In this document: positions 3,012 to 63,765 of the stretch, one piece after another
Numbering within the stretch: position 1 is the stretch's first letter
How the letters are laid out: each line of letters opens with the position of its first letter
Assembly (NCBI GenBank): GCA_963786365.1
Contig: CAWAYR010000024.1
Coordinates: 145,960-209,959 of the forward strand
From: an uncultured Acidobacteriota bacterium
GTDB taxonomy: Bacteria > Acidobacteriota > Vicinamibacteria > Vicinamibacterales > UBA2999
Direction of reading: 5' to 3'
DNA: 64,000 nucleotides
Made by a program: the position numbers and the translations under genes
Notes under the pieces: model-generated
Database searches by the model: none
What the model saw: only the letters and a program-made list of their open reading frames with translations
What the model was told of the DNA's origin: nothing

Positions 3012-4404
3012 CTACTCAGTTACCGAATTCGGTCGGACCTTGGTCAGCAGGAAAGGGACGCAACACCACGCGTAGATGTACCAGCTGGCCGTGTTGTTGA
3101 ACTTGTTGATGAACACCGTGAGCACCAGGGCCGCGCAGATGTGCCCCATGGTCATCAGCCAGAACGCCGATCGACGATTTCTCGAGAAGACACCGTAGAT
3201 GATGCCGGTCATCAGACCGATAGCTGCGGCGTAGACCAACGCGCCGGCCGGCCCGAAGTCACTGACCGGATAGTAGAGAAACGTGTAGGCGTTGAACGAG
3301 ACATCCTGGCCGCTCGTGAGTCCAAGCGGGACGAACGGCGGAATCCCGGGCGGCATACCCGACACGATGCCGAGGCGCTCCAGGAGCCGGCCGAGCGGAT
3401 AGATGGCTTGGCGGCCGAAGGTTCTCGGTTGAGGATTGGCCAACAGGACATCCAGGGCGGCGTACGAGGCCGTCGCGTAGAGATAGATGGTCGAGGTCCC
3501 GCGCAGGCTGTCCTGGAGTTGCGTAACCCAGGCCGGCGTCGCTTCGACCTCGATGGGCGCGGCGGGCGCACCGGGCGATTGCGGCTGGCCGGTGGCCGTT
3601 CTGGCGGTTTTGGCCGCTCGCGACTCGACTTCCAGCGTCGGGATCCGCACTTCGACGTTCAAATTGGTTGGCGTCTTGCCCTGCCACACACCGACCAGCA
3701 GAAAGTACGACCCGAGGCTCAAGAGCACCGCGGCCGTCAAGATCGTCAGCTTTGCGAGCGTCAGTCGGGCACCGGCGCTCAGCACGTAGGTGAAATACGT
3801 GGTCAGCAGCACGACGAAGAACTGTGTGCGATCAGTGGAGACCCAGTACCAGGGTGCAGACGGCAACCAGCACCCACACCCAGCGCCGGATGGCATGGCC
3901 GGTGAGCGCCAATGCCACGGCCAGAATCGGTGTCGCCAGGCACAGGAACTCGAGGGCCAGATAGTTGGATGGCACCGAGCGGTCGGAGAGCGCGATACGA
4001 ATCCGCCACGGCCGATCGACGAATGCCTCCAAGCCGAGCACCTGCGCGACTGCCGATGCGTACCAGATCAGGCCCAGGCACCCGAGCAGCCCCATGACGA
4101 TCAGGCACCGCTCGGGAGCGACCGGCGGCATCGGTCGCGGGCCCAGCCGCTGTCCCCAGCGCTGGCCGAGCCCGCTGCAGACGACGAACGCGCCAACGGA
4201 AGCGACGATGAGCCCGAAGGTCGAGCCGGCCATGGCCGCGTACGGAATCACATGGAGAAAGAAGAGGCCGAGCGTCGCCGCCCACGTTCCGAGCACGAGG
4301 ACGGCGGGGTGGAAGTAGTCGCCGGTCAGACGCCGACCCAGCGGCACGGCGGCCATCGCCAGCAGCAACAGAGACAGTGACAGGTAAGCGTTGGCACCAA
4401 TCAC
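3012..4404 (-). CDS. Polytopic membrane protein, Wzy-like oligosaccharide repeat-unit polymerase (tentative); one frame change near 3832-3896
   Basis: ORFs 3832..4404 and 3012..3896 are both strongly hydrophobic multi-TM and join end to end. There is one large hydrophilic loop. Position directly downstream of the Wzx gene supports the call. Confidence 0.5.
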
Positions 4405-7041: not shown

Positions 7042-7896
7042 ATGAAAAACGAAGACCGCAAGACGGTCGAGGGTTTCGGCGACGAGTGGGCGCGTTTCGA
7101 CAACGCGACGTTGTCCTCGGCCGAACGCGCCAGTATTTTCGACCAGTATTTCGCTCACTTCCCGTGGGCCACGCTGTCAACGGCCGCCGAAGGGTTCGAT
7201 GCAGGATGCGGCTCAGGCCGGTGGGCCGCGGTCGTCGCCGATCGTGTCGGGCGCCTGCACTGTGTGGATGCCAGCAGCACCGCCCTCGACGTGGCCCGGC
7301 GCCAGCTGACCGGGAAGCCGAACTGCGAGTTCCACCACGCGTCGGTGTCCAGCCTGCCGTTCGTCCCGGGGTCGATGGACTTCGGCTACAGCCTCGGCGT
7401 GCTCCATCACACCCCGGACCCGAGAGGAGCGTTGCAGGCCTGCGTCTCGCCCTCAAGCCCGGAGCGCCGTTCCTCGCTGTATCTCTACTACCGGTTCGAC
7501 AACCGGCCATTCTGGTTCCGCGCGCTGTGGGCGGCGTCGAACTTGGTGCGGCTCGGCGTGTCGAGGCTCCCATCACGTCTCCGCTTCGTCGTCAGCGACA
7601 TCGTTGCCACCACGGTCTACTGGCCGCTCGCCCGAATCGCGGCGCTCGGCGAGCGGGTCGGAGCCAGCGTCGACGGCTGGCCGCTTGCCTACTATCGGGC
7701 TCGCAGCTTCTATGTGATGCGCAACGACGCCCTCGACCGTCTCGGAACCCGTCTCGAGTGGCGATTCACCCGCGCGGAAATCCGCATCATGATGGAGTCG
7801 GCCGGACTCGAACGCATCGTGTTCAACGAGCACGCCCCCTATTGGTGTGCCGTCGGGCACCGGGCCGCGGGCCGCCGCGCCGCCGTGACGGCATGA
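7042..7896 (+). CDS. Class I SAM-dependent methyltransferase
   Basis: Starts MKNEDRKTVEGFGDEW. Motif I is FDAGCGSGRW, followed by GYSLGVLHHTPDP. The stop overlaps the next ATG (ATGA at 7893-7896). Confidence 0.8.
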   Translation: MKNEDRKTVEGFGDEWARFDNATLSSAERASIFDQYFAHFPWATLSTAAEGFDAGCGSGRWAAVVADRVGRLHCVDASSTALDVARRQLTGKPNCEFHHASVSSLPFVPGSMDFGYSLGVLHHTPDPRGALQACVSPSSPERRSSLYLYYRFDNRPFWFRALWAASNLVRLGVSRLPSRLRFVVSDIVATTVYWPLARIAALGERVGASVDGWPLAYYRARSFYVMRNDALDRLGTRLEWRFTRAEIRIMMESAGLERIVFNEHAPYWCAVGHRAAGRRAAVTA

Positions 7897-36142: not shown

Positions 36143-39100
36143 ATGCGTGCAGCCTTCGGCGTTCGGTCGATGTTCGTCGCGGGCGTGATGTTGGCAGCCG
36201 TCGCAATGCTGCGCGGTCAGTCACCGCAATCCACCGGCACGTGGGCCGACGCCGGGCTCGGCGGCGCTGTGCCCCGCGGCGGCGCAGCGGTCGCGCTCCC
36301 CGACGGGCGCACGCTGATCCTTGGCGGGGCGGCAGCCGACGATACGCCGTCGAGCGCTGCACTGCTGTACGACCCGAGCACCGGGACACTGACTCAGCGC
36401 CGGCGCGTTGCTGTTCGCACGCACGGGCCACGCGGCAACCGCGTTGAGCGATGGGCGCATCGTGGTGTCAGGTGGCGTCATCGGCGGGCTCGTGACCGGC
36501 GATGTCGAGATCTTCGATGTCGCCGCCGGCACGTCGTCGCTCGCCGCCGTGTTGCCGGAACCGCGCCGCGGACATGCCGCGGCTCGCCTTGCCGGCGACG
36601 CGGTGCTGATGGCCGGCGGAAGCGGCGTCGACGGTACCGTGCTGCGCACGGCCGTCGTGCTCGATCCGGCGACCGGGGCCGCCACCGTTCTGGACAGCCA
36701 GCTGTCGACGGCGCGCACGGACGCGTCGGCGACGCGGCTCATCGACGGCCGGGTGCTGGTGGCTGGCGGCAGCGACGGCGCCGCCGATTGGCCTCCGCGG
36801 AAATCTACGATCCGTTCGCGCAGACTTTCTCGCCGCTCACGACCGCGATGTCGGTGCCGCGTCGCGGTCACGCTGCGATCCTGCTGCCCGACAACGCGTC
36901 GGTCCTCGTCGGCGGCGGCACGTCGAACGGCGTCGCCCAGTCCGCTGTGGATCTCTTCCTGCCGGCCGAGTTCCCCGACCCGTTCTCGTACGGCGTCGGC
37001 CAGTTCGCGCCGACCGGGGCGATGTCGGCGGCTCGCACTGCTGGCGTGACGACGCCGACCGGCATCGAGGGCTATGCCATCGCCGACGGCGGCGGCGCGT
37101 CGAACGCCGAGGTCTACCGTTTTGCGACCATCAGGACCGATAAGGACGACTACGCGCCGGGCGAGCTCGCGCTGATCACCGGCACGGGATGGCAGCCGAA
37201 TGAAACCGTGCGGCTGACGTTCCAGGAAGATCCGGCGGTGCATGACGACTACGTCATCGACGTCGTCGCCGATCCGCAGGGCAACCTGCGCTGGGACCAG
37301 TGGGCGCCGGAATACCACGATCTGGGGGTCCGCTTCTACCTGATGGCGTCGGGCGGCGTGTCAAAGGCACAGACGACGTTCACGGACGCGCTCAAGGTCA
37401 CGGTCAAGCGCAGAAACCCGAATGCGGCGACCTTCAGAGTTGCCAGCGGTTCGACGACTCCCGTGACGTTCGAGCTGATCAACGCCAACACCGGCGGCGA
37501 CAAGAATTCGTCCATCAACATCAGTTACTCGCTCACGGTAACGGGTGCCACGGCCACAGGTATTCCGTTGACGGCCTCTGGCATCACGATACCTAGCAAC
37601 AGCAGCATCTTTCGGACATGGAGTATCGTCGTCCCTACTGGGCCAGCGTCGGCGACCGTCACGTTGTCGGCGACGGTGAACCTCTGCCCGGCGTGTGACG
37701 TTGGGACTGACTCCTATACCATCAACGTCGCCGCGCCACCACCATCCGACTCGACGCCACCCGTGATCACACCGAACATTACGGGCACGCTGGGCAACAA
37801 CGGCTGGTATACGAGCAACGTCGACCTCACCTGGACTGTCACGGACCCCCAGTCGTCAATCTCGTCCTCGACCGGCTGCAGTCCCTCCAGTGTTACGACC
37901 GACACTGCCGGCACGACGTTCACGTGCTCGGCGACGAGCGCCGGTGGCACCAGCAACTCGTCGGTCACCATCAAACGCGACGCGTCCAAGCCGAACGCGC
38001 CGACTGCCTCGGCCACGCCGCCGCCCAATGGCAGCGGCTGGAACAACACCGACGTCACGGTCGCGTTCGCCTCGGCCGGCGACAACGGCCCGAGCGGGGT
38101 CCTGTCGTGCACGCCGTCGAGCACGCTCACCGCCGAGACTGCCGGCACTGCCGTGACCGGCACCTGCACCGACAACGCCGGCAACGTGAGCGACGCCAGT
38201 TCCCTCACCGTGAAGATCGACAAGTCCGCCCCGAATGCGCCGATTGCATCGGCCACACCGGCGCCGAACGCCAGCGGCTGGAACAACACCGACGTCACCG
38301 TCGCGTTCGCCTCGGCCGGCGACAACGGCCCGAGCGGAGTCCTGTCGTGCACGGCGTCGAGCACGCTCACCGCCGAGACCGCAGGCACCGCGGTCTCCGG
38401 CACGTGCACCGACACCGCCGGCAACGTCAGCGGAACCAGCTCGGTCACCGTGAAGATCGACAAGACCGCGCCGAACGCGCCGACTTCCTCGGCGACGCCG
38501 GCGCCCAACGCCAGCGGCTGGAACACCACCGATGTCACCGTCGCGTTCGCCTCGGCCGGCGACAACGGCCCGAGCGGCGTGGCCTCCTGCACGGCCAGCC
38601 AGTCGTTCACGACCGAGACGAGCGGGACTCTGGTCTCGGGCACCTGCATCGACAACGCCGGCAACACCAGCGCGGCGACCGATGTGACGGTAAAGATTGA
38701 CAAGACCGCGCCGAACCCGCCCACGGCCACCCGCACTCCACCGGCCAACGCCGCCGGCTGGAACAACAGCGACGTCACGGTGAGCTTCGTGTCGGCGGGC
38801 GACGTCGGGCCCAGCGGCGTGGCCTCGTGCACGACGCCGACCACCCTGACCGCGGAAACGGCCGGGACGAACGGTCTCGGGCACCTGCACCGACACCGCC
38901 GGCAACGTCAGCGGGACCACCGACGTGACAGTGAAGATCGACAAGACGGCGCCGGACGCGCCGGCGGCGTCGCACTTACCGGCCCCGAACGCGGCGGGCT
39001 GGAACAACGCCGACGTCACGGTCTCGTTCACGCCGTCGACCGACGCGCTGAGCGGCATCGCCTCGTGCACGGCGCCGACGACGTTGACGACCGACACCGC

Positions 39101-40765
39101 GTCGACGGTCGTCTCCGGCACCTGCATTGACAACGCGGGCAACACCAGCGCCAGCACCGACGTCACGGTGAAGCTCGACAAGAGCGCTCCCAACGCGCCC
39201 ACGGGATTCGAGGACGCCGCCGGCCAACGCCGCCGGCTGGAACAACACCGACGTCACGGTGAGCTTCGTGTCGGCGGGCGACGTTGGGCCCAGCGGCGTG
39301 GCTTCGTGCACGGCGCCGACCACCCTGACGGCCGAGACGTTGGTGGGGGGCACGGTGGTCTCCGGGACGTGTACCGACACCGCCGGCAACGTCAGCGGGG
39401 CCACCGACGTGACGGTGAAGATCGACAGGACGGCGCCAGACGCGCCGGCGGCGTCACACGTGCCGGCCCCGAACGCGGCGGGCTGGAACAACGCCAACGT
39501 CACGGTCTCGTTCACACCGTCGACCGACGCGCTGAGCGGCATCGCCTCGTGCACGGCGCCGACGACCCTGACGACCGACACCGCGTCGACGGTCGTCTCC
39601 GGCACCTGCACTGACAACGCCGGCAACACCAGCGCCAGCACCGACGTCACGGTGAAGCTCGACAAGAGCGCTCCGAACGCGCCCACGGGATCGAGGACGC
39701 CGCCGGCCAACGCCGCCGGCTGGAACAACACCGACGTCACGGTGAACTTCGCGTCGGCGGGCGACGTCGGGCCCAGCGGCGTGGCTTCGTGCACGGCGCC
39801 AAGCACCCTCACCGCGGAAACGGCCGGGACGAACGTCTCGGGTACCTGCACCGACACCGCCGGCAACGTCAGCGGGACCACCGACGTGACGGTGAAGATC
39901 GACAAGAGCGGCGCCAAATCCGCCGACGGCATCGCGAACACCGGCGGCGAACGCGGCCGGCTGGAACAACACCGCCGTCACGGTGACGTTCGCCGCGGCC
40001 GGCGACCACGGCCCGAGCGGCGTCGCCTCCTGCACGGTCCTGCCGCCGTTCACCGCCGACACGGGCGGCACCCTGGCGTCGGGGACATGCACCGACGCTG
40101 CCGGTAACAGCAGCGGTGTCACCAGCCTCACGGTGAAAGTCGACACCGTGCTGCCGACCATGGCGGTCACTGGCGTCGCCAATGGGGAGATCTACATCCT
40201 GGGGGCGGTGCCGGCGGCCGCGTGCAGCACGACCGACCCACTGTCGGGCGTCGACGCGGCCGCGACGGTCGCGGTGACCGGCGGCGTGCCTCCGGGCGTC
40301 GGCACCTTCACAGCCACGTGCAGCGGCGCGACCGACAAGGCCGGCAACGCGGCGGCGCCGCCGGTGAGTGTCACCTACCAGGTGCAGTTCGCGCCGGCCG
40401 GCACGACCTGCCTCGGTGCGCCAGCTCATCAGGTGCTGCAGCCGATCAATGTCGATGGCTCGAGCGTCTTCAAGCAGAAGAGCACCGTGCCGGTGAAGTT
40501 CCGTGTCTGCGATGCCAATGGCGTCTCGATCGGCGCCAACGTCGTCGCGGCCTTCAATCTCGTGCAGGTGACCGGCGCCACGGCCACTCCGGTCAACGAG
40601 GAGGTCCAGTCGACGACGCCGGACACGGCGTTCCGCTTCGACCCGACCGCGCAGCAGTGGATCTTCAACACCAACACGAAGCCGCTGTCGGCTCCCCTGG
40701 CATATCGCTACCGCATTTTGCTGACCGACGAAACGACGATCGAGTACGTGTTCACCCTGAAGTAG
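36143..40765 (+). CDS. Giant secreted surface protein: Kelch-like beta-propeller + about 10 Ig-like repeats + C-terminal PxKF-like domain; 5 frame changes
   Basis: Starts MRAAFGVRSMFVAGVMLAAVAML (signal peptide). Kelch-like repeats run through ORFs 35681/36408. Repeats of KIDKxAPNAP...GWNNTDVTVxFxSAGDxGPSGV...GTCTDxAGN continue through ORFs 35681, 38925, 39259 and 39983. The C-terminus is INVDGSSVFKQKSTVPVKFRVCD...FRFDPTAQQWIFNTNT. Confidence 0.8.
37969..40146 (+). repeat. Nine tandem coding repeats of about 240 bp (80 aa) inside the giant surface-protein gene
   Basis: The period is marked by recurring GTGAAGATCGACAAG...GGCTGGAACAAC blocks. Units at 38944-39183 and 39427-39663 are near-identical, as are their neighbours, indicating a two-unit (about 480-bp) super-repeat duplication. 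Confidence 0.85.
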
Positions 40766-42871: not shown

Positions 42872-44016
42872 ATCGTCGCATCCTCGTCGCCGCGGCCGGG
42901 GCCCTGGCCCTGGCGCTGCCGGCGTCGGCTCCGGCCGAACAAATCGGCAAGCTGCAGAGCGCGCTGAAGCGCGTGCAGCAGATCAAGGACGTCGAGATGA
43001 CCGAGGCCGACGAGGCTCAGCTCGGCGCCGAGGTCAGCACCCGCATCCGGGCCCGCTACGGCGTGGTCCAGGACCAGGCCGCGCACCGCTATGTGTCGCT
43101 GGTCGGGATGGCGCTGGTGATGGCCAGCTCGAAGCCGGGGCCGAACTGGAAGTTCATCATCCTCGACACCGACGCGGTCAACGCGTTCGCCGCACCGGGC
43201 GGCTTCGTGCACATCACCAAGGGCGCGCTGGCGAATCTGAAGAACGAGTCGGAGCTCGCCGGCGTGCTCGCCCACGAGATCATCCACGTCACCGACAAGC
43301 ACACCATCCGCGCCATCCAGAAGGGCAAGCTGGTGCAGATGGGCGCCGACGAGACCGTGGCCGGCAACAGCGCGCTCATGAGCAAGCTCGCCGACAAGGC
43401 CTACGAGGTGATCGAGAGCGGCTTCGGCCGCGGCGAAGAGCTCGAGAGCGACGAGAAGGGCATCGTGATCGCCAACGCCGTGGGCTACGCGCCGCAGGGC
43501 ATGAACGGCTTCCTGAACATGCTGGTCGAGCGCAACAAGAGCGGGCAGCCGGCCAAGAACGGCCTGTTCGCCTCGCATCCCGAGACCAAGGAGCGCATCG
43601 ACAAGATGACCCAGCAGATCGCGTCGGCCAAGCTCACCTCGACGGCCACCGTCGCCGAGCGCTACACCGCGACGATCACCTTCACACCGGTCGCGGCCGC
43701 CGAGATCGCCACCATCGAAGCGGGGTCGGCCGGCGCCGCCGGGGCCACCGCCAAGCCGGCCGAGGAGCCGAAGAAGAAGGGCCTGGGCGGTCTCACCGGG
43801 GCCTTGAAGCCGAGCGGCGGCGAGCGCAAGTCGGCACAGGTCACCGGCTCGGGCGCGGCCCGCGGCGCCGGCGGCGAAGACCGCCTGGCCAAGGGCGGGT
43901 CGAATCCGGCGCTGGTCGCCGTCACCGTGAGTGCCGCGGACCTCGCCGAGTTCAAGAAGGCGGGGGGACTCGAAATAGCAGGGACCAGGGACCGGGGACC
44001 GGGGACCAGGGACTGA
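42868..44016 (+). CDS. Secreted M48 family zinc metallopeptidase
   Basis: Signal peptide, HEIIH (HExxH) and a downstream EELESDEKG glutamate. ATGA overlap with the cyclase stop. The last 12 codons are encoded by the GGGACCR heptamer array. Confidence 0.8.
   Translation: MNRRILVAAAGALALALPASAPAEQIGKLQSALKRVQQIKDVEMTEADEAQLGAEVSTRIRARYGVVQDQAAHRYVSLVGMALVMASSKPGPNWKFIILDTDAVNAFAAPGGFVHITKGALANLKNESELAGVLAHEIIHVTDKHTIRAIQKGKLVQMGADETVAGNSALMSKLADKAYEVIESGFGRGEELESDEKGIVIANAVGYAPQGMNGFLNMLVERNKSGQPAKNGLFASHPETKERIDKMTQQIASAKLTSTATVAERYTATITFTPVAAAEIATIEAGSAGAAGATAKPAEEPKKKGLGGLTGALKPSGGERKSAQVTGSGAARGAGGEDRLAKGGSNPALVAVTVSAADLAEFKKAGGLEIAGTRDRGPGTRD
43981..44015 (+). repeat. Heptamer tandem array (GGGACCR) x5
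   Basis: GGGACCA GGGACCG GGGACCG GGGACCA GGGACTG. It overlaps the M48 stop codon and ends 6 nt before the MscS GTG. Confidence 0.9.
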
Positions 44017-45443: not shown

Positions 45444-45491
45444 GGGGCTCGGGTCCCGGGGCTCGGGACCGGACCGTCACGCTGTCACGCT
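45444..45491. repeat. Heptamer + octamer tandem array between convergent genes; contains a hairpin
   Basis: GGGGCTC GGGTCCC GGGGCTC GGGACCG GACC, then GTCACGCT GTCACGCT. It starts 1 nt after the MscS stop. The last octamer overlaps the stop of the minus-strand gene. Hairpin GGTCCCG-GGGCT-CGGGACC lies at 45452-45470. Confidence 0.85.
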
Positions 45492-55087: not shown

Positions 55088-55121
55088 CGTGACCGTCTAC
55101 GGGCAGTCGTCGAGGTCTTCC

Positions 55122-55142
55122 CTAGCCCCTAGCCCCTGTTCC
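55122..55142. repeat. Heptamer array CTAGCCC x2 ending in CTGTTCC
   Basis: CTAGCCC CTAGCCC CTGTTCC, 10 nt beyond the stop (55152-55154) of the minus-strand TonB receptor gene. Same family and same CTGTTC ending as 61172-61206. Confidence 0.7.
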
Positions 55143-55151
55143 GGCCGACCT

Positions 55152-58063
55152 CTAGAACTCCAGCCGGGCGCCGACCATGAACACCCGCGGATCGAGCACC
55201 GCGGTCACCCGCTTGTAGCTCGGGCCGAGCGTCAGCGAGAAGTTCGTGACCGCCTCGGAGTTGAGCACGTTGTAGATGTCGAGCATGCCCGACACCTTGA
55301 AGCGGCCGACGTCGAAGGCCTTGTCGAGCCGGAAGTTCAGCAGGCTGACGTTGTCGGAGCGATCGTCGCTCAGGTTGTCGCGGAAGAAGGGCGCCTCGAA
55401 GTTCGAGAGGTTCAGCCCCGGGGAGGTGTCGCCGTCGGCGACGATCGGCGAGAACGGGAAGCCGCTCTGGTAGCGCCAGTTGGCGGCGAAGCCGATCTGC
55501 CACGGGAACGTGTAGCGGCCCAGGAACTGGTAGTGCCACACGGTGGTCTCCTGCCGGTTGGGCACGGACGGGTTCGGCGTGAAGTAGAAGCCGATGCTGG
55601 ATCGGATCCGCGGACAGCGGGCTCGTGCTGACGGCCTGCGCGTTGTTCGACGCCGACCGGAAATCGTTGCGCCACTGGTAGTCGGCGCTGGTCTGCACGA
55701 AGAAGTTGCTGATGCGCTTCTGGTAGGCCACTTCCACCGTGTCGTAGTTGAAGTTGCCGTCCGGGTAGTTGCCGTACAGGCCGTTGGTCTGGTCGGCGAT
55801 GGCATCGGGCACGTCGAGCAGGGTCAGCACCTCGCCGGTGGCCCCGACGGTCTGGCGCGTCGGCACGTTGACGTTGCCGATCCACGCCTCGATCAGGTTG
55901 GTGCCGTAGAACGACGCGAAGTCGTTGTGGTTCTTGCGGACGTAGGTGAAGCGGGCCGACGACTCACCGGGCAGCTGGAACTCGAGCGACCCGCTGATCT
56001 CGTCGGTGTACGGCGTCTTGAAGTCGGGATCGACCGGCGTGCTGTCGGCGCCCGACGCGCAGGCGCAGCGTGCCGAGCTCCGACGGCCCGTCGTAGCGCT
56101 GGTTGCGGTTCTGGTCGAGGAAGTTGTATTCCGCAATCGACTGGCCGCCCGGATTGATCGCCGAGAAGCCGTCCGCAAGGTTGTTGTAGTAGCGCCCGTA
56201 GAACGCCTTCAGCACCACCTGGCCGGTGCCCTTCAGGTCCCAGGTCGCGCCGAGCCGCGGCGCGAAGTTGGTGTTGGAGAGGATCGTCGGCCCCGGTCAC
56301 CTCCGTACTGACCGGGAAGATCCTGGTGCCGTCGGACAAGACATCAGTGAATACAGGTTTGCGCGTCGCGTCGTCGTATCCGACCCGCTGGTAGTCGAAG
56401 CGGAGGCCCACGGTGAAGGTCAGCTTGTTGTTCGGCGCCCAGCGATCCTGGAGGTAGGCGGCGTAGTGCATGTCGGTGTTCGCACCCACCGTCCAGCCGC
56501 TGGCATAGTCGGACGCCACGCCGGTATCGACGAATCGGATCCGATCGGGCGCGCAGGTCGTGTCGGCGCAGGGGTAGGAGTAGCGGATGCCGCCCGACGT
56601 CCCGTTGTGGCCGTAGCGATACGAGTCGAGGATGCTCTCGAACCCGAACTTGAAGTCGTGGCTGCCGGCCTTCTCGGGCAGGTAGTAGGTGAGCTGGGCC
56701 TTGACCTGCGGCTTCTTGCGGTAGGTCGAGAAGGCGTTCCAGCCGGCGCCGGCCACTGCCGTGGTGGCGCGGAACAGCTTCGGGGCGTTGGTCGCCGGGT
56801 CGACCTTGACCGCCATCGGCCAATCGAGCGAGAAGTTGCCGACGTTCACGTTGAAGAAGGTGCGATCGGTGAGCACCTTCTGCCACTCGCCCTTGTACAT
56901 CCGCGAGTAGCTGTCCTGGGCGCGCACGGATTCTTCGGGCAGCAGTGACGAGATGCCGCGCCGCGGCTTCTGCTTCCGGCCCTGCTGGTAGTAGCCGATG
57001 ACGGTGTCGTTCTGCCCGGGCTTCCAGGTGGCCTTGCCGGTGTAGTTGTCGAAGATGCCGAGGTCCGAGAACTCTTCGGGCTGGCCCGACACCAGCTTGT
57101 CGATCTTGAAGTGGTTGTAGGCGCCGTAGAACCACAGCTTGTCGCGCACGATGCGCCCGCCCAGATCGACGTGGCCCTCCCAGAAGAGCAGGTTGGGATT
57201 GGCGCACTGCGGAAGGCCGGCGGCGTTGTTCGGGCACTGGTAGCCCTTCTCGGCCATGTCGCGCGGCTCGGCGTTGCTGCCGACGAAGCTGCCCGGCTCG
57301 TAGCTGACGTGGTACAGGCCCTTGAACTCGTTGCCGCCGCTCTTGACGGTGGTCACGATGGCGGCGCCGCCGGAATTCATCTCGACGTCGGCGCCGAGGG
57401 CGCTGATCGAGACCTCCTCGTTGGCGTAGTAGTCCTCGTAGAACCCGGTGCCGCCGACGCCCTCGGTGTGGTCGATGCCGTCGGAGACGACGCGCGCCTG
57501 GTTCTGGATGCCGAAGCTCTCGTAGCCCGACTGCTGGCTCTTGTGGCTGCCGCCGACGTCGAAGCCCTGCATGCGCACGCCCGGCGCTTCGGCGAGAGCG
57601 GCCCACACGTCGGTGGAGTTCGGCACCGCGATCAGCTCGTCGCCCTTCAGGCTGGTGCCGATCTTGGTCGTCGAGGCGTCGACCAGCGGCGACGCGCCGG
57701 TGACCGTGATGCGCTCGGTCAGGCCGCCGACTTCCAGTTTGGCGTCGAACGAGATCGTCTGTCCGAGGATGACGGCGATGTTGTCGCGGTCGAACGGCTT
57801 GAAGCCCGACAACTCGAAGGTCAGCTTGTAAACGCCCGAGGGCATCCCCGGAAACAGGTAGGTGCCATCAGCCTGCGTGACGGTGGTGCGTTGGCCAATC
57901 AACGACGGCGACGTGGCCGTGACCGTGACGCCGGGCAACACCGCGCCCTGCGCGTCGGTGACGGTGCCGGCCAAGCGGCCCTGGCCAATCTGCGCGTACG
58001 CTGGCGACGCCACGGCGGCGACAGTGCCGCCACGACGACGATCCGTCCAATCCGCGATTTCAT
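55152..58063 (-). CDS. TonB-dependent receptor with an N-terminal CarboxypepD_reg-like domain; at least 4 frame changes
   Basis: GGAGGA then ATG at 58063 (MKSRIGRIVVVAAL). Then GRLAGTVTDAQGAVLPGVTVTATS...ITVTGASPLVD (ORF 55893..58133). Segments follow in ORFs 55964, 55129 and 55152, ending in the classical ...VFMVGARLEF terminus. Confidence 0.8.
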
Positions 58064-58322: not shown

Positions 58323-59031
58323 TTACTTGCCCAGGCCGGCCAGCTTGCCGAAGTCGACCTGCCCCGCAAAGTCGTGCAACTGCTTCATGTCTGTGAGCTT
58401 GTCGCCCTCGAGCGAGACCAGGAAGCGCTTGGCGACCACCAGGTTCAGCTCGCCCGACTTTCGCCGGTCGTTCCATTTCTCGAAGCCGGGATGGCCGGCC
58501 AGCGTCGTCGACTTCTCGTAGCCGTCGTCGGTTTCTTTCTCGTAGCCGGCGGACAGGAACATCGCCCATGGGGCCACCAGCATCTGCTGGAAGGCCGAGT
58601 CGACGATCTTCACTTCGATCTGCGCGTCGCCCATGCGGTAGCGCGTCTCGGTCTGGGAGAAGGCGACCGGGGAGGTCATGCGCTCGCCCTTGGGCTTGTC
58701 CATGGTCCAGCCGTTCACCGACGGGAACGCGGTCTGCAAATCACGGAAGCTGACCGGATCGGCGGCCTTGCCGCCGGCCGATGCGCCAGCCATGGCCGTG
58801 GCCATGCCCTGCATCGCCTTGGCGAACTCGTCCATGCCCTTGGCGGCATCGGTGCCAGCGGCGGCGCCCTGTCTGCGCGGCGGCGGCGCCGGCCTGGGCC
58901 ATCGCCTCGGTGGCCTTCTCGGTGGCGGCCTTCAGCTCCTCGGCCGCCTTCTCCTCGGGCGACTTCCCGCAGCCGACCGACAGCAGGGCAGTGACGCCGA
59001 CGACCACGGCAGACGACAGGACGTGACGCAT
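58323..59031 (-). CDS. Hypothetical lipoprotein; one frame change near 58870
   Basis: Starts MRHVLSSAVVVGVTALLSVGCGKSPEE (lipobox) at 59031 in the frame of ORF 58741. It continues in ORF 58323..58835 (MDEFAKAMQG...). Confidence 0.55.
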
Positions 59032-59509
59032 GCGAGGGACCTCCACGACCGCGGCGCGGCCGAATTCGGTGTTCCCGGATGATAGCGCGAGAGTTCCGGC
59101 CGGTCCCTCATGGGCCGGCGCGGTCGGTGTGCACTCGCGGGAGCGCCGAGGGCTCACGCCCGAGACCGCGTGTCGCCAGCTGCTCGAGGCACGGCGCCAC
59201 GCCGCGCTGCACGTCTCCACGTCGCCGTCGCCCGAGCGCCGCGACGGCCGCGCCGCCACGCCGCGCCGCTCTCGCAGTCAGCGCCGCGCCGAAGGCGCCG
59301 GCCGATGGCGTCGCCGGCCTCGCGCCACGCCCTCACCCTGGCCGGGCCGCAGTGACTTCGGCGGCCTGACACGATTCGCGACACGCGCTGGCCAATTCGG
59401 TCAGCCGCGGCCCGCGATCGGCGGCGCTGCGGCCGCGAAATCCTCAGGAAACGACCGCCGTACGGCCGCGGCGGGCAGCGGCAAGGACTTTGCGATTCCG
59501 CCGGCTGTG

Positions 59510-61059
59510 ATGCGTCCCGCCGCCGCACGATTGCTCGCCTTCGCACTGGTCGTCGCCGCTGGGGCCACCGCCCTCGGCCAATCGTCGCCGCCGACGATCG
59601 GCGGCGCCTTGCCGCCGCTCTTCCCGGCCGACAACTGGTGGAATCAGGACGTGAGCCAGGCGCCGCTGGCGCCGGAGTCGGCCGCCCTGATCGGCTTCAT
59701 CAACAACGGCGGCAATCGCCGGCTGCATCCCGACTTCGGCGGCGTCGCCGGACCGAACGAAATCTACGGCATCCCCTACGTCGTCGTGCCCGGCACCCAA
59801 CCCAAGCGACAGGTGCAGTTCTATTACGACGACGAGAGCGACGGCGTCGGCCAGGCGTTCTACCCGATCCCCGATCAGGCGATCACGCAACCGTACTGGA
59901 TCGAAGGCGGGGCGCCGGGCAATCAGGCCCCGGGCGGCGACCGCCACATGCTGATCGTCGACCGCGACAACAAGCGCCTCTACGAGCTGTTCGATCTGGG
60001 CTGGGACGGCACCAAGTGGACCGCCGGCTCCGGCGCGTATTTCGATCTGCAGGCCAACGGCCGCCGTCCCGACGGCTGGACCTCGGCGGATGCGGCGGGA
60101 CTGGCGATCCTGCCCGGCCTCGTCAAGTACGACGAGGTCTACGGCGCCGGCGAGATCACCCATGCGCTTCCGCGTCACGGTGCGCGCCACCAACAGCTTC
60201 TACGTGTGGCCGGCGTCGCACGTGGCCGGCAGCAACAGCGCGGCGCCGCCCAACGGCACACGGCTGCGGATGAAGGCGTCGAAGGACATCTCCGGTTATC
60301 CGCCGGAGATGCAGAAGATCTTCCGCGCGATGAAGAAGTACGGCCTCATCGTCGCCGACAACGGATCGGACATGTACATCGGCGGCGCCTTCGATCCGCG
60401 CTGGAACAACGACGTGCTCAACCCGGCGTTCCACAGCCTCCACGCCAACGACTTCGAGGTGGTTCAGCTCGGCTGGCGCGGCACGACCGGGCCGCCGCAA
60501 CCGCCGTGCACCCTGCCGGCCGCGCCGGCGAATCTGTGGTCGTCGGTCACCGGCTACGGCGTGTCGCTCGGCTGGACGCCGCCCACCGGCGCCCTCGCCG
60601 GTCACGTACTCGACGTCGGCTCGGGTCCGGGTCAGACCAACATCGGCTCGCTGCCAATTGCGGCACCCGCGGCCAGCTTCGCCGCGACGGCGCCGGCAGG
60701 ACGCTACTACGTGCGGGTGCGCGCCGGCTCGGCCTGCGGCGTGGGCGCGGCGTCGAACGAGATCGTGCTCGACGTGCCGTCAGGGTGCGGCGTGCCCACG
60801 GCGCCGGGCACCCTGGCCTACTCGCGCATCGCGCGCACCGTCGTCGCTGGCCTGGGGACCGGCGTCGAGTGCCACGACCTACGTCGTGGAGGCCGGCTAC
60901 AGCCCTGGGGCCGTCAACGCCGCGATCCTCGATGTCGGCGCGTCTCTCTCGATCGGGGGTCCCGTGCCTCCCGCCACCTATTACGTGCGGGTCCGGGGCC
61001 GGAACGGCTGCGGGCAGCTGGGGCCGGCGGGCAACGAGATCGTGGTCGTCGTACCTTGA
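59510..61059 (+). CDS. Secreted protein of unknown function with two C-terminal Fn3-like modules; 2 frame changes (about 60170, about 60850)
   Basis: Starts MRPAAARLLAFALVVAAGATALGQ. The conserved-looking core is PADNWWNQDVS...RLHPDFG...GDRHMLIVDRDNKRLYELF...WTSADAAGLAILPGL. It is followed by two YYVRVRA/G...CG...NEIVxxVP modules. Confidence 0.6.
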
Positions 61060-61062
61060 TCA

Positions 61063-61093
61063 GCGGTGGCGGCTAGCGGCTAGCGACCACCGC
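61063..61093 (+). terminator. Hairpin whose loop is an inverted heptamer pair (CGGCTAG x2)
   Basis: GCGGTGG (61063-61069) / CCACCGC (61087-61093), a 7-bp stem. The loop CGGCTAGCGGCTAGCGA is the reverse complement of the CTAGCCG heptamers at 61172-61199. It starts 4 nt after the TGA at 61057-61059. Confidence 0.4.
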
Positions 61094-61094
61094 C

Positions 61095-61168
61095 GTCACA
61101 CTGTTCAGGCGGTCACGCTGTCACGCTCTCACGCCGTACACATTGCCACGCTGGCATGCGTCGCCATG
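61095..61168. repeat. Degenerate octamer array (GTCACGCT family), about 9 units
   Basis: GTCACACT GTTCAGGC g GTCACGCT GTCACGCT CTCACGCC GTACACATT GCCACGCT GGCATGCG TCGCCATG. The exact dimer GTCACGCTGTCACGCT also occurs at 45476-45491. Confidence 0.7.
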
Positions 61169-61171
61169 AGT

Positions 61172-61206
61172 CTAGCCGCTAGCCCCTAGCCGCTAGCCGC
61201 TGTTCG
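61172..61206. repeat. Heptamer array CTAGCCS x4 ending in CTGTTCG
   Basis: CTAGCCG CTAGCCC CTAGCCG CTAGCCG CTGTTCG, 118 nt upstream of the ADOP permease start. It is complementary to the loop heptamers at 61070-61083. Confidence 0.85.
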
Positions 61207-61323
61207 AGAATCAACGGCGGCGTCCCACTGGCGCACACCGGCGGCGGGGGCGAGGCGTACGACACGCTGATCTCGGCGGGTTCCAGGTGCGGCGCTGGCA
61301 GGCCGCTTGCTGATTGGCCGGCC

Positions 61324-63765
61324 ATGTCCCACTTCCTGCGTGACGTGGTCCATGCCGTCCGCGTGCTTGCGTCCCGCCCGGTCCTGACCGCCACCACGGT
61401 CGCGACGCTCGCCGTCGGCATCGGCGGGACGAGCACGATGTTCGCCGTCGCCGACAGCCTGCTGTTGCGGCCGTTGCCGGTGCCCGAGGCCGCCCGCCTG
61501 GTCCGCGTCTTCGGTGCCAGCGACATCGCCGAGCTGGGCATCACGTCGTACCCGAACCTGCAGGACGTCGCCGACCGGGCCCGCTCCTTCGCGGCGATGA
61601 CGATTCACCAGCAGACCTTCGCCGCCTACGGCCTCGGCGACGACACGACCAACGCCGCCGTCGAGCTGGTCAGCGGCAGCTACTTCCCGACCTTCCAGGT
61701 CGCGACGACGCTCGGCCGCGCCTTGATGCCCGAGGACGATCGGCCCGACGCGGCGCGCGTCACGGTGGTGAGCGACCGTTGGTGGCGCAGCCACCTGGCC
61801 GCGGATCCCCAAGTCGTCGGCCGCACCGTGCACCTCAACGGGTCGGTGTTCACGGTGATCGGCGTCGCGCCGTCGAGCTTCCGCGGCAGTTACGACGCAC
61901 TCGGCACCGATCTGTGGGTGCCGCTCATGACCTACGACGTCGTGCGGCCGCGCGGCCTCGACATCCGGCGGCGCACCTGGGGATGGCTGCAGGCGACTGC
62001 CCGGCTCGCGCCCGGGGCGTCGCTCGAGGGCGCCAGCAGCGAAGCGGCGACGATTGCCGCGGCGCTGCGCGCCGAGTATCCGCGCGAGAATCGTGGCCTC
62101 GCGTTCACGGTGGTGCCGGCGTCGAGCCTGCCCGAGTCGATGACGCCGGACTTACGCCGTGCTCTCGTCTTCGCCCTGATCGTGGCGGCGCTGGCGCTCC
62201 TGGCGGCCTGCGCCAACGTCGCCAATGCCTCGCTGGCGACGGTCAGCGACCGCGGCGCGGAGATCGCCGTCCGCATGGCGCTCGGCGCGTCGCGAGGCGC
62301 GATCGCCCGGCAGTGGCTGGCCGAGAGCCTGGTCGCGACGGCGGCCGCCACGCTCCTCGGCCTGTTGCTGGCGGTGTGGCTGCGCGATGGACTGTTCGCG
62401 CTCAGGCCGCTGGCCGGCTACGAGAACTTCGCGCCCGCGCTCGACATCGGCTGGCCGGTGTGGGCCTGCGCGGCCGTGCTGATGGCCGTGGCCACCTGCC
62501 TGTCGGGGGTCCTGCCCGCCTTTCGCGCGTCGCGCGTCGCGCCGGCACGTCCGCTGCGTGACGGCGCCGCGGCCAACATCGGCGGCAGCCGCGGTCAATG
62601 GATCCGCACCGCCCTCGTCTCGGCGCAGGCAGCGGTGGCGCTGGCCCTCGTCGTGCTCGCCGGACTTCTCGGGCAGAGCGTCGCCACGGCGCGGCGCTTC
62701 GACGTGGGATTCGACCGCGCCGGGCTGGTGATCGCGAGGGCCAACGTCAGCGCGCTCGGGCACGACGAGGCGCAGAGCTATCAGTACCACGCGGCGACGA
62801 TGGCGCGGGTGCGGGCGCTGCCCGGAGCCACGCAGGTCACGGCCGCGTCGGTCGTCCCGCTCGGCCCCAACGATGAGCGCCGCGGCGTGACGATCGACGG
62901 CTACACCCCGCCCGGCGACGGCGCCCCCCTCTCGATGCCCAACAACGTCGTGTGGCCTGGCTACTTCGAGGTGATGGGCATCCCGCTCGTCGCCGGCCGC
63001 ACCTTCACGGAGGCCGATGGGCGTCCCGGCGGCCCGCTCGTCGCGATCGTGAACCAGACGATGGCGACCCGGTACTGGCCGTCGGGCGATCCGATTGGCC
63101 GCACCATCCGCATGGGCGATCAACGCGCGGAGGTCGTCGGCATCGTCAAGGACATCGTCTACTACACGCTGGGCGAGGCGCCGCTGCCGTATCTCTACCT
63201 GGCCTACGGCCCCGGCCAGCCGTATCAGGACGGCCTCACGTTCCACGTCCGCACCAGCCTCGCCCCGGCGGTGATGGCGCGCCAGCTGTCGCGGGAGCTG
63301 CGGGCGCAGGATCCGCGCGTCCGCGTCGTCAACGCCATGGGCTATGACGAGCTGCGTGCGGCGGCGCTGTTTCCGGCGCGGGCGATGGGCTGGCTGAGCA
63401 CCGGCTTCGCGGTCCTCGCCCTGGCGCTGCTGCTCGTCGGCACCTACGGCGTGACGTCGTATGTCGTGGCCGGACGGCGCCGCGAGTTGGCGCTGCGCGT
63501 CGCGCTGGGCGCCGCTCCCGACGCACTCCGCGCCGGCGTGGTGCGGCGCGCGCTGCTGTGGGGGGCACCGGGTGCGCTGGCTGGCGCGCTCGTCGCCCTC
63601 GGGCTCGCCCAGCTGCTGCGCGGGACCCTGGTCGGCGTGTCGGCTCTCGATCCGTGGTCGCTGGCCGGCGGCGCCGTCGCCGTGCTGATCACCTCGGGCC
63701 TGGCCGCCTACGTCCCGGCGCGCCGCGTCGGGCGCCTCGACCTCGCCGCCGAGCTGCGCCAGTGA
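61324..63765 (+). CDS. ADOP-family duplicated orphan FtsX permease (MacB-like), intact
   Basis: 813-aa ORF starting MSHFLRDVVHAVRVLASRPVLTATTV. It has two FtsX 4-TM modules, each preceded by a large periplasmic domain, and ends AAYVPARRVGRLDLAAELRQ. No ATPase or PadR gene is adjacent. Confidence 0.85.
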   Translation: MSHFLRDVVHAVRVLASRPVLTATTVATLAVGIGGTSTMFAVADSLLLRPLPVPEAARLVRVFGASDIAELGITSYPNLQDVADRARSFAAMTIHQQTFAAYGLGDDTTNAAVELVSGSYFPTFQVATTLGRALMPEDDRPDAARVTVVSDRWWRSHLAADPQVVGRTVHLNGSVFTVIGVAPSSFRGSYDALGTDLWVPLMTYDVVRPRGLDIRRRTWGWLQATARLAPGASLEGASSEAATIAAALRAEYPRENRGLAFTVVPASSLPESMTPDLRRALVFALIVAALALLAACANVANASLATVSDRGAEIAVRMALGASRGAIARQWLAESLVATAAATLLGLLLAVWLRDGLFALRPLAGYENFAPALDIGWPVWACAAVLMAVATCLSGVLPAFRASRVAPARPLRDGAAANIGGSRGQWIRTALVSAQAAVALALVVLAGLLGQSVATARRFDVGFDRAGLVIARANVSALGHDEAQSYQYHAATMARVRALPGATQVTAASVVPLGPNDERRGVTIDGYTPPGDGAPLSMPNNVVWPGYFEVMGIPLVAGRTFTEADGRPGGPLVAIVNQTMATRYWPSGDPIGRTIRMGDQRAEVVGIVKDIVYYTLGEAPLPYLYLAYGPGQPYQDGLTFHVRTSLAPAVMARQLSRELRAQDPRVRVVNAMGYDELRAAALFPARAMGWLSTGFAVLALALLLVGTYGVTSYVVAGRRRELALRVALGAAPDALRAGVVRRALLWGAPGALAGALVALGLAQLLRGTLVGVSALDPWSLAGGAVAVLITSGLAAYVPARRVGRLDLAAELRQ

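Follow-up and report, generated by a model that had tools for sequence, protein, structure and literature searches.

A polar heptamer-octamer repeat unit behind stop codons in Vicinamibacterales-like Acidobacteriota and its relation to the four-heptamer repeats of other bacteria

Dispersed repeats made of four heptamers have been noted in bacteria for decades (STRR, and the repeats of Xanthomonas and Geobacter), and the sole mechanistic idea put forward so far is the formation of G-quadruplexes. The heptamers are GGGAATC in Xanthomonas and GGGGAYT in Nostoc; a Xanthomonas genome carries about 185 arrays with a mode of four units, 89-93% of the arrays are intergenic, the mean distance to the 5' neighbour is 28 nt, and 70-75 convergent inverted pairs are found (Rehm et al. 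2015, PMC4692102). According to the same study, related species share the intergenic sites, with turnover of sequence and length, and the neighbouring genes belong to all functional classes; the four-unit rule was explained by quadruplex formation, the function being unknown (PMC4692102). Geobacter metallireducens is reported to carry 49 copies of an element of four GGGACCG units, within and between genes and of unknown function (Aklujkar et al. 2009, PMC2700814). The STRR of cyanobacteria are heptamers as well, and TAACTGA repeats occur in Beggiatoaceae, Cyanobacteria, and Bacteroidetes (MacGregor 2015, PMC4679880). Here we analyse a related repeat in a stretch of 64,000 nt from an uncultured acidobacterium (GenBank assembly GCA_963786365.1, contig CAWAYR010000024.1, positions 145,960 to 209,959 of the forward strand). 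The whole stretch, with a G+C content of 70.5%, is called the window below, and the module under study, built of heptamers and octamers, lies at 61063-61206, between a stop codon and the start of an ADOP-type permease gene.

We found that this module belongs to a dispersed, polar, and size-capped repeat unit that is located directly behind stop codons in Vicinamibacterales-like Acidobacteriota. The sequence of the unit turns over rapidly, yet the unit persists at given sites, and it can invade a coding gene in frame. A non-exhaustive full-text search of the literature returned no description of this acidobacterial family or of the heptamer-octamer composite.

The module as two inverted copies of a polar unit

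The module consists of two inverted copies ("arms") of a short polar repeat unit. A preliminary description, made from the sequence alone, had treated it as a single element of 145 bp; all the pieces listed there are present, but the module is not one rigid element, because the spacer between the arms (19 nt, GGCATGCGTCGCCATGAGT, 61153-61171, + strand) is not conserved, has no homology in other copies, and apart from the octamers matches nothing. The unit itself comprises (i) a divergent cap heptamer ending in NAG, (ii) up to four SGGCTAG heptamers, (iii) a linker of 3 nt, and (iv) one to several NTCMCGCT octamers.

The left unit has all of these parts, octamers included, and begins 3 nt past the TGA stop (61057-61059, + strand) of the upstream gene, which encodes a secreted protein without a Pfam match and whose reading frame is broken twice in the window. 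Its cap, TCAG and CGGTGG (a degenerate heptamer), spans 61060-61069 (+ strand), and TGATCAG is also found in the ortholog L063. The left arm, CGGCTAG x2 (61070-61083, + strand), is in the G-rich orientation, sense to the upstream gene; it is followed by the linker CGA and the octamer-like CCACCGCC (61084-61094, + strand), at a position that matches the 9-11-nt junctions of other copies, for example acccgacacc in L011 (at 5840) and acccgatgac in L039 (at 5099). Preceded by a single C, the octamer array of the left unit reads GTCACACT, (GTTCAGGCG), GTCACGCT, GTCACGCT, CTCACGCC, GTACACAT, TGCCACGCT (61095-61152, + strand). The array had been described as holding about nine octamers; the array stands, and the count appears generous, with five or six units being recognizable. 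All octamers at this locus are assigned to the left unit. Around the left arm, GCGGTGG (61063-61069) and CCACCGC (61087-61093) can form a local hairpin (61063-61093, + strand) in which a mutated heptamer is paired with the linker, the loop of 17 nt being CGGCTAG x2 and CGA.

The right arm points the other way, contains heptamers only, and lies 117 nt before the start of the ADOP permease gene. It reads CTAGCCG CTAGCCC CTAGCCG CTAGCCG (61172-61199, - strand), the reverse complement of four SGGCTAG units, in an order that recurs in three genomes. Its cap CTGTTCG (61200-61206) and the adjoining AGAATCA together span 61200-61213 (- strand; reverse complement TGATTCT CGAACAG) and are shared with many motif-fetched copies; it should be noted that this sharing carries a selection bias, since many of those copies were retrieved by that very motif. 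Tandem Repeats Finder reports three arrays: two have a period of 7 (2.4 copies, and 4.3 copies with 91% matches), and one has a period of 8 (7.6 copies, 64% matches, score 45). The best complementary pairs between the arms reach 100% over 13 nt and 83% over 24 nt, and the reverse complement of the hairpin-loop heptamers matches the distal ones exactly, as had been stated.

The frequency of these motifs in the window was compared to that in shuffled sequences. The 16-mer GTCACGCTGTCACGCT, at two or fewer mismatches, has three matches versus 0.05 expected, and the heptamer dimer SGGCTAGSGGCTAG, at no more than one mismatch, has five versus 0.04 expected; none of 100 shuffles reaches either count. 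For one octamer by itself, enrichment in the window is not clear (8 matches versus 3.6 expected, with 3 of 100 shuffles reaching 8). Another candidate, CTGGCCGCTCGCCC at 7620, was rejected as a chance match within coding sequence.

Recurrence behind stop codons and within dnaE2

The 20-mer CTAGCCSCTAGCCSCTGTTC was searched in one genome per species (185,579 species, a collection that does not include the source genome). There are 58 loci versus roughly 4-10 expected by chance on our own estimate, mostly in metagenome-assembled genomes (MAGs) of Acidobacteriota, with nine loci in CAVTMO01, six in one Vicinamibacterales MAG, and four in CAVZXA01. In the same scan, the CCCTAGC variant was found in cyanobacteria (Calothrix, Microseira, Leptolyngbya), Lysobacterales, and others too. 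For a census, we collected arrays of at least two SGGCTNG units from 35 sources, that is, 34 fetched Acidobacteriota loci from 14 MAGs and the window. The census contains 91 arrays, 57 of which were not selected by the search pattern. Arrays of four units are the largest class (45), followed by two units (31), three units (14), and a single array of seven; among the 57 unselected arrays, there are 24 with four units, 10 with three, 23 with two, and none longer. Certain mixed orders of the units come up repeatedly: counted from the cap, the order C-C-G-C of the right arm in the window is found in seven four-unit arrays from three genomes, the window included, and C-G-C-C in six arrays, while a homogeneous four-unit order is found only once.

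The heptamers are accompanied by octamers with a fixed polarity. The motif [AG]TC[AC]C[GA]C[TC] occurs within 40 nt of the G-rich array on the 3' side in 21 of the 91 cases and never on the 5' side (0/91), and its reverse complement was found near arrays 4 and 2 times, respectively. We identified 24 composite half-elements, from at least 10 genomes or metagenomes, in which (SGGCTAG)2-4 is followed by a 3-nt linker and octamer-like NTSNCGCT units; a typical one is ...CGGCTAG-NGG-ATCACGCT-GTCACGCT. An independent metagenome scan for the composite added five more copies, all with the same grammar. Thus, the preliminary suggestion of a recurring modular element, as opposed to chance low complexity, is borne out by the 58 genome loci, the 24 polar half-elements, and three more arrays in the window itself.

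Ordinary slippage would produce simple-sequence DNA without family identity or function. Heptamers are the commonest long simple-sequence repeat (SSR) unit in many bacteria (Mrazek 2007, as quoted in PMC4679880), and the unit sequences do drift between orthologs. However, the size distribution ends at four units, heterogeneous unit orders recur across loci and genomes, the octamer partner is fixed, and the arrays of L059 and L060, which represent the same species from different samples, are identical; slippage alone is therefore highly improbable as an explanation. Nor does the repeat look like a phase-variable SSR: this strain pair, the only one of its kind here, shows no variation, and the sites follow the stop codons of unrelated genes.

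The four gene-proximal arrays of the window all follow a stop codon at 0-16 nt, their G-rich strand being the sense strand, and the genes that neighbour the repeat units are functionally unrelated to one another. Besides the module, these are (CAGGGAC/CGGGGAC) x5 at 43979-44013 (+ strand), immediately after the TAG that ends an M48 peptidase gene; GGGGCTC GGGTCCC GGGGCTC GGGACCG, followed by GACC and GTCACGCT x2, at 45444-45491 (+ strand), directly behind the TAG stop codon of an MscS/cNMP-binding gene, the flanking genes being convergent; and CCCTAGC x2 with CCCTGTTC at 55120-55143 (- strand; reverse complement GAACAG GGGCTAG GGGCTAG), 10 nt past the stop (55152-55154, - strand) of an outer-membrane receptor-like gene. 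The second of these arrays contains, exactly at 45476-45491, the 16-mer GTCACGCTGTCACGCT, so that its reported recurrence next to a different heptamer array (GGGGCTC/GGGTCCC) is correct.

Proximity to stop codons also holds across the census, with gene positions taken from a crude open reading frame (ORF) caller based on G+C at third codon positions. For 26 arrays, the end of an upstream ORF on the same strand is no more than about 23 nt from the first unit, with a modal distance of 11 nt; the stop lies inside the array in four of them and abuts it in two, and there the array's own TAG ends the gene. Both orientations relative to transcription occur, at approximately 3:1, the opposite one being rarer. 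The arrays are predominantly intergenic (76/91), and all 15 coding arrays belong to imuB/dnaE2 loci. In one example of the opposite orientation, seen in three genomes, a C-rich four-unit array runs directly up to the ATG of orthologous genes for an ABC-transporter ATPase in L058 (5123-5150), L023 (5200-5227), and L041 (7380-7407). The junctions are CTGTTC-ATG, CTGGTC-ATG, and CTGCTC-ATG, respectively, at a place where a Shine-Dalgarno sequence is expected; in L058, GGAGG is found about 40 nt upstream of this ATG, at the end of the preceding gene.

Coding copies are found in L009 (1-3596, - strand), where dnaE2, the gene of the error-prone DNA polymerase III alpha subunit, is open for 1198 codons through five modules. 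These heptamer or heptamer-octamer modules would be translated in frame, for example as DQRLAASGWRLEDTEHD...SRQPLDPSRY, and they are located between Pfam domains; the frame stays open because each in-frame TAG has been changed to TGG, CAG, or GAG. The modules are colinear in a second genome (L016, 5711-8000), and the identity is 84% within the modules as well as in the rest of the sequence. Indels between the two dnaE2 genes measure 36-42 nt, the size of whole arms. We label this behaviour selfish-like, given the five in-frame modules with mutated TAGs and the arm-sized indels between two genomes. In L009, a gene of 140 amino acids (aa) for a four-helix-bundle protein (3596-4135; PF05635, 23S rRNA intervening-sequence protein, bAvd-like) lies between imuB and dnaE2 and is flanked by inverted four-unit heptamer arrays. 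The possibility of a cargo gene or an autonomous element was considered and rejected: there is no other PF05635 gene in the fetched loci, and wide arm pairs enclose ordinary genes.

The arrangement stop, G-rich arm, octamers, spacer, C-rich arm, next gene recurs in L011 (3929-4135), L012, L036, L039, L024, L044, L120, and L121. The distance between arms varies from 75 to 505 nt, and the arms may enclose a terminator or a whole gene. The inverted blocks of the preliminary description are best regarded as two units, one per side, because the spacer is not conserved and in several convergent gene pairs holds a separate terminator-like hairpin of its own. This bears directly on the possibility of a classical miniature inverted-repeat transposable element (MITE), i.e., a cut-down transposon with terminal inverted repeats that is moved by a transposase encoded elsewhere. 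The arms do form terminal inverted repeats, with caps GAWCAG...CTGTTC; copies are dispersed, including the in-frame ones in a coding gene, and orthologous sites differ by presence and absence. On the other hand, apart from the octamers the internal sequence is not conserved between copies, arms are commonly single, the distance between them varies with a terminator or a whole gene in between, target-site duplications are not recognizable, and no related transposase was seen in the 35 sources, although no dedicated transposase screen of the fetched ORFs was made. The module lacks flanking direct repeats: TTGAT is present on both sides, but in inverted orientation, and the repetitive CTAG would mask a short target-site duplication. 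A MITE of the classical type thus appears quite unlikely.

The cap is less uniform than the motif-fetched copies suggest. Among the unselected arrays, the cap ends in TAG in 21/57 and in CAG in 20/57, which is its general feature, and GAACAG/CTGTTC was rejected as the defining sequence of the cap (only 3/57 unselected arrays carry it). The box TGA N5 GAACAG, counted by eye in about 14 of 30 GAACAG arrays, is therefore a subfamily trait biased by the query. A phage origin of the composite was rejected as well: arrays of the CCCTAGC type and GTCACGCT dimers occur in IMG/VR contigs, but the 36 matches to the 16-mer are near a rough chance estimate, and the heptamer-octamer composite was found in none of these. 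Separately, phage contigs from IMG/VR of widely differing G+C content (L082, L093, L099, L107, L109, L112, L114, L116) contain iteron-like clusters of TGTCACG(C/T), with about 19 tandem GTCACGCT units in L116. These clusters often form inverted sets around a palindrome and resemble origin or partition sites; no link was established between them and the acidobacterial composite.

Orthologous loci and predicted folds

The gene downstream of the module (61324-63765) encodes an ADOP/MacB-type duplicated permease (MacB_PCD and FtsX domains); close homologues are annotated as Vicinamibacterales, and the protein encoded in the window is 100% identical to the database homologue P0001. Using ADOP homologues, we retrieved five syntenic loci that represent four distinct lineages, L059 and L060 being two assemblies of one species. 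All of them have an array or a remnant directly 3' of the stop codon of the upstream gene. The full composite is kept in one of the four lineages, L064, which reads TGA CTAG, then CGGCTAG GGGCTAG CGGCTAG CGGCTAG, GTCCCGCT x2 in the spacer, and CTAGCCG CTAGCCC CTAGCCG CTAGCCG CTGATCG. In L060 and L059, there are (GGGGCTG/GGGACTG) x4, one base from GGGCTAG in another register, followed by GTCCCGCT and a decayed right arm; L061 contains GGGACTC GGGGCTC GGGTCCC GGGGCCC, and L063 retains only the remnant TGATCAG CGGCTAG CGGGTCG. Conservation of the heptamer-octamer pairing, the lack of which at orthologous loci would have counted against the preliminary description, thus holds for L064, whereas the other loci show decay or a different heptamer array. 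The right arm is identical between L064 and the window at 31/31 nt, whereas the ADOP gene is only 80% identical (0.8^31 is about 0.001), and by the identity matrix the window and L064 are not sisters. Replacement at one site is also seen in a second orthologous pair, where (CAGGGAC) x5 at 43979 of the window corresponds to GAACAG, CGGCTAG CGGCTAG GGGCTAG, and CGGCTCG in L028. The simplest history is that some lineages preserved or re-homogenised an ancestral array, which in the remaining ones decayed or drifted.

The upstream gene (59030-61059) has two frame changes, near 60090-60200 and near 60650-60760. Since L059 and L061 have unbroken orthologues of it (539 and 516 aa), the breaks are probably indel errors of long-read sequencing, or the gene may be a pseudogene. 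Split genes are also present in several loci from the same ENA study. Two further observations concern the surroundings: a 32-residue ORF is called at a constant relative position, about 1.7-1.9 kb past the end of ADOP, beyond a gamma-glutamyltranspeptidase gene, in five of the six loci L059-L064 and in the contig of P0004; and the window contains a large tandem repeat at 37990-40062 (8.5 copies of 240 nt or 4.3 copies of 484 nt, with 74-81% matches) within reverse-strand ORFs without a Pfam match, presumably a repetitive surface protein.

The start of ADOP is preceded by an intergenic gap of 264 nt that contains the module. Closer to the start, two boxes are kept in all six orthologous loci, GTCCCAC-N4-GCACAC (61222-61238) and GCTGGCAGGCCGCTTGCTGATT (61294-61315), even in L062, where the upstream gene differs. 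It follows that the ADOP gene's own signals lie outside the module; the two boxes are the probable promoter or leader of ADOP. These data bear on a cis-regulatory RNA specific for ADOP, such as a leader, a riboswitch, or a small RNA, for which the position of the module in this gap and its strong folding could be cited. The repeat unit also lies beside unrelated genes, there is no match to an Rfam family, and L063, L060, and L061 are without the module and yet keep the two boxes nearer the start codon. The ortholog comparison largely refutes this explanation, which we find hardly credible; a regulator specific to the ADOP locus is not what the module represents.

The local and long-range folds proposed as alternatives are both real in silico. 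Folding of 61050-61220 yields the long-range stem, at -79.1 kcal/mol (z = -4.15) on the + strand and at -92.8 kcal/mol (z = -5.85) on the - strand, with none of 200 shuffles as good in either case. The local hairpin reaches -21.6 kcal/mol, and its enforcement costs about 13 kcal/mol compared to the long-range fold. The module alone gives -68 kcal/mol as a stem of about 30 bp (-79 kcal/mol with flanks), and a single arm folds only via GCTAGC palindromes (-16.4 kcal/mol), being a direct-repeat array and not a designed palindrome. Fold significance varies among loci, with z = -6.4 for L064, z = -3.7 for L060 (with a quadruplex), z = -0.6 for L063, and z = +0.2 for L061. The values for L063 and L061 led us to reject a conserved RNA structure at the orthologous locus and, because the fold is not conserved at all orthologous loci, a structured-RNA gene is unsupported. 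At the gathering threshold of Rfam 15, the whole window has only a tRNA, and at the E-value threshold the region 60900-61400 has only two chance matches to miRNA precursors (17 and 14 bits versus thresholds of 197 and 268).

In the G-quadruplex explanation, which has been put forward for the GGGNATC repeats of Xanthomonas and Nostoc, four G-tracts would fold into a non-B-DNA structure with an effect on transcription or replication. The four-unit preference, the inverted pairs, and the proximity to stop codons agree with those reported in PMC4692102, and the array (GGGGCTG) x4 of L060 is predicted to form a quadruplex at -33.7 kcal/mol. The CGGCTAG/GGGCTAG arrays of the window, however, have mostly GG tracts; under the ViennaRNA quadruplex model, a quadruplex is predicted for the L060 array and for the Xanthomonas unit, and none for the arms of the window or of L064. 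The four-unit rule holds regardless, and the Watson-Crick stem wins when an inverted partner is present. For the SGGCTAG unit, the quadruplex was rejected on this model, and as a general account of the repeat it is very unlikely.

Possible role of the unit and comparison with known systems

The explanation we prefer, and to which we give roughly equal measures of belief and doubt, is that the unit is REP/BIME-like repeat DNA in 3' untranslated regions (3' UTRs). Some copying process would spread the unit or homogenise it between loci; it would be tolerated chiefly right behind the ends of genes and would form the 3' UTR in the transcript of the upstream gene. In the present module, the arms could pair into the stem of about 30 bp, which would probably terminate or protect the upstream transcript and insulate the ADOP gene. 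TAG is found in all three frames of both strands of the right arm, and in two of three in the two-unit left arm, so that stray translation would be stopped in any frame.

Several observations weigh against this explanation. There is no canonical terminator and no U-tract: the region 60800-61500 contains no consensus sites, a scan of the region for sigma-70-like promoters and intrinsic terminators returned nothing, and the tail 3' of the right arm is CUGUUCGAGAAUC. The significance of the fold is lost in the orthologs L063 and L061. In the convergent loci L024, L044, and L120, a canonical-looking terminator hairpin is located between the arms, and the arms are not the terminator there. Single arms occur in apparent operons, i.e., between atpG-like and atpD-like genes, upstream of the ABC ATPase (possibly an ABC-transporter operon), and between imuB and dnaE2, all of them sites at which termination would be harmful. 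Nothing points to a mobilising mechanism, as target-site duplications, empty sites, transposases, and autonomous copies all went undetected; here, the checks on the fetched loci covered four-helix-bundle homologues and arm positions only. Finally, the identity of the arms in the window and L064 and the 84% identity of dnaE2 inside and outside the modules would also fit selection for a trans-acting factor.

Such a factor, presumed to be an oligomeric protein that reads four contiguous heptads and the octads on DNA or RNA and thereby marks gene ends, is the main rival explanation, though an unlikely one. The site could be a polar roadblock of the "stoperator" kind, a site of regulated termination or antitermination, or a site of RNA 3'-end processing or stability. 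There are precedents. The stoperators of mycobacteriophage L5 are asymmetric short sites at gene ends that act in one orientation, the omega repressor binds contiguous 7-bp units with one protein dimer per unit, and HutP, a hexameric RNA-binding protein, recognises UAG-N4 x3, with a UAG every 7 nt. With respect to the acidobacterial unit, these may be taken as functional analogies only. A dedicated factor would be consistent with arrays capped at exactly four units, with the fixed polarity of heptamers and octamers, with an octamer kept beside different heptamer families (45444 versus 61070 in the window, L060 versus L064), with the right arm being identical at 31/31 nt against a background of 80%, and with dnaE2-embedded modules that are near the consensus at the DNA level; TGTCACG-type iteron clusters in phage contigs point the same way. 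Conversely, no candidate protein was identified, the array sequence is freely replaced at the orthologous site, and both orientations relative to transcription occur, at about 3:1. Moreover, CGGCTAG, GGGGCTC, and CAGGGAC coexist in one genome, which disfavours a single sequence-specific reader. In its most far-reaching form, which is rather unlikely, the idea is that these Acidobacteriota have a dedicated trans-acting machinery for the marking of gene ends and that (heptamer x4)+(octamer x1-5) is the platform it recognises. If it were true, the four-heptamer repeats of Xanthomonas, Nostoc, and Geobacter would also reflect a shared protein- or enzyme-based mechanism and not DNA structure, because the four-unit rule holds here without G-quadruplex potential.

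With the octamers, the heptamers make up a longer and more specific sequence of about 50 nt, which, for example as (CGGCTAG)4-NGG-ATCACGCTGTCACGCT, is usable as bait for a binding factor or as a probe for 3'-end mapping. In-frame invasion of dnaE2, a gene of an SOS-type polymerase, is a rare case of behaviour outside Rickettsia that resembles the Rickettsia palindromic elements (RPE). If the repeat is nothing more than selfish DNA, what we present is a neat account of a novel repeat family from a phylum that has been little studied.

Among known systems, REP/BIME/REPIN sequences share with the acidobacterial repeat a unit of about 35 nt, an extragenic location at gene 3' ends, an occurrence as single copies, inverted pairs, or clusters, mosaic combination with other short motifs, and proposed roles in termination and mRNA stabilisation. 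Unlike in REP, the arm consists of tandem heptamers and does not appear to be an imperfect palindrome, and it has no GTAG or CGTC tag (the caps end in CAG or TAG, with variable bases before). No RAYT gene was noticed in the fetched loci, whose ORFs were not screened for transposases. The similarity to RPE lies in the in-frame insertion into a functional-looking gene (five in dnaE2) and in a palindromic element of approximately 100-250 nt; by contrast, the copy in the window is intergenic with stops in all frames, coding copies are confined to imuB/dnaE2 loci, and there is no sequence relationship. The STRR and TAACTGA repeats (PMC4679880) are, like the present ones, dispersed intergenic arrays of heptamers in two to six copies, with a patchy phylogeny and no known mechanism, whereas TAACTGA repeats are found just upstream of start codons in forward orientation and the arrays described here favour the site just past stop codons.

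The repeats of Geobacter and of Xanthomonas and Nostoc are closer. The Geobacter element also consists of four tandem, dispersed heptamers, and the CAGGGAC/CGGGGAC and GGGACCG units of the window have nearly the same sequence; no octamer partner or stop-codon rule is described for it in the text and legends of that study. With the repeats of Xanthomonas and Nostoc, the acidobacterial repeat shares dispersed tandem heptamers with a four-unit mode, a mostly intergenic location near the stop codon of the 5' neighbour, and convergent inverted pairs. It differs in the CGGCTAG/GGGCTAG unit, which is without the G3 tracts required for a quadruplex, in the attached NTCMCGCT octamers of fixed polarity, in the acidobacterial host, and in array length, with one array of more than four units here versus up to 26 units in Xanthomonas. 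Thus, the acidobacterial repeat is a variant of the unexplained four-heptamer repeats of Xanthomonas, Nostoc, and Geobacter, and it follows the rules of four units, stop-codon proximity, and inverted pairs with a unit that is predicted to be unable to form a quadruplex. What is new here is a non-quadruplex unit that obeys the four-unit rule, its polar octamer partner, a location next to stop codons, which in some cases the array itself supplies, and the in-frame copies in dnaE2.

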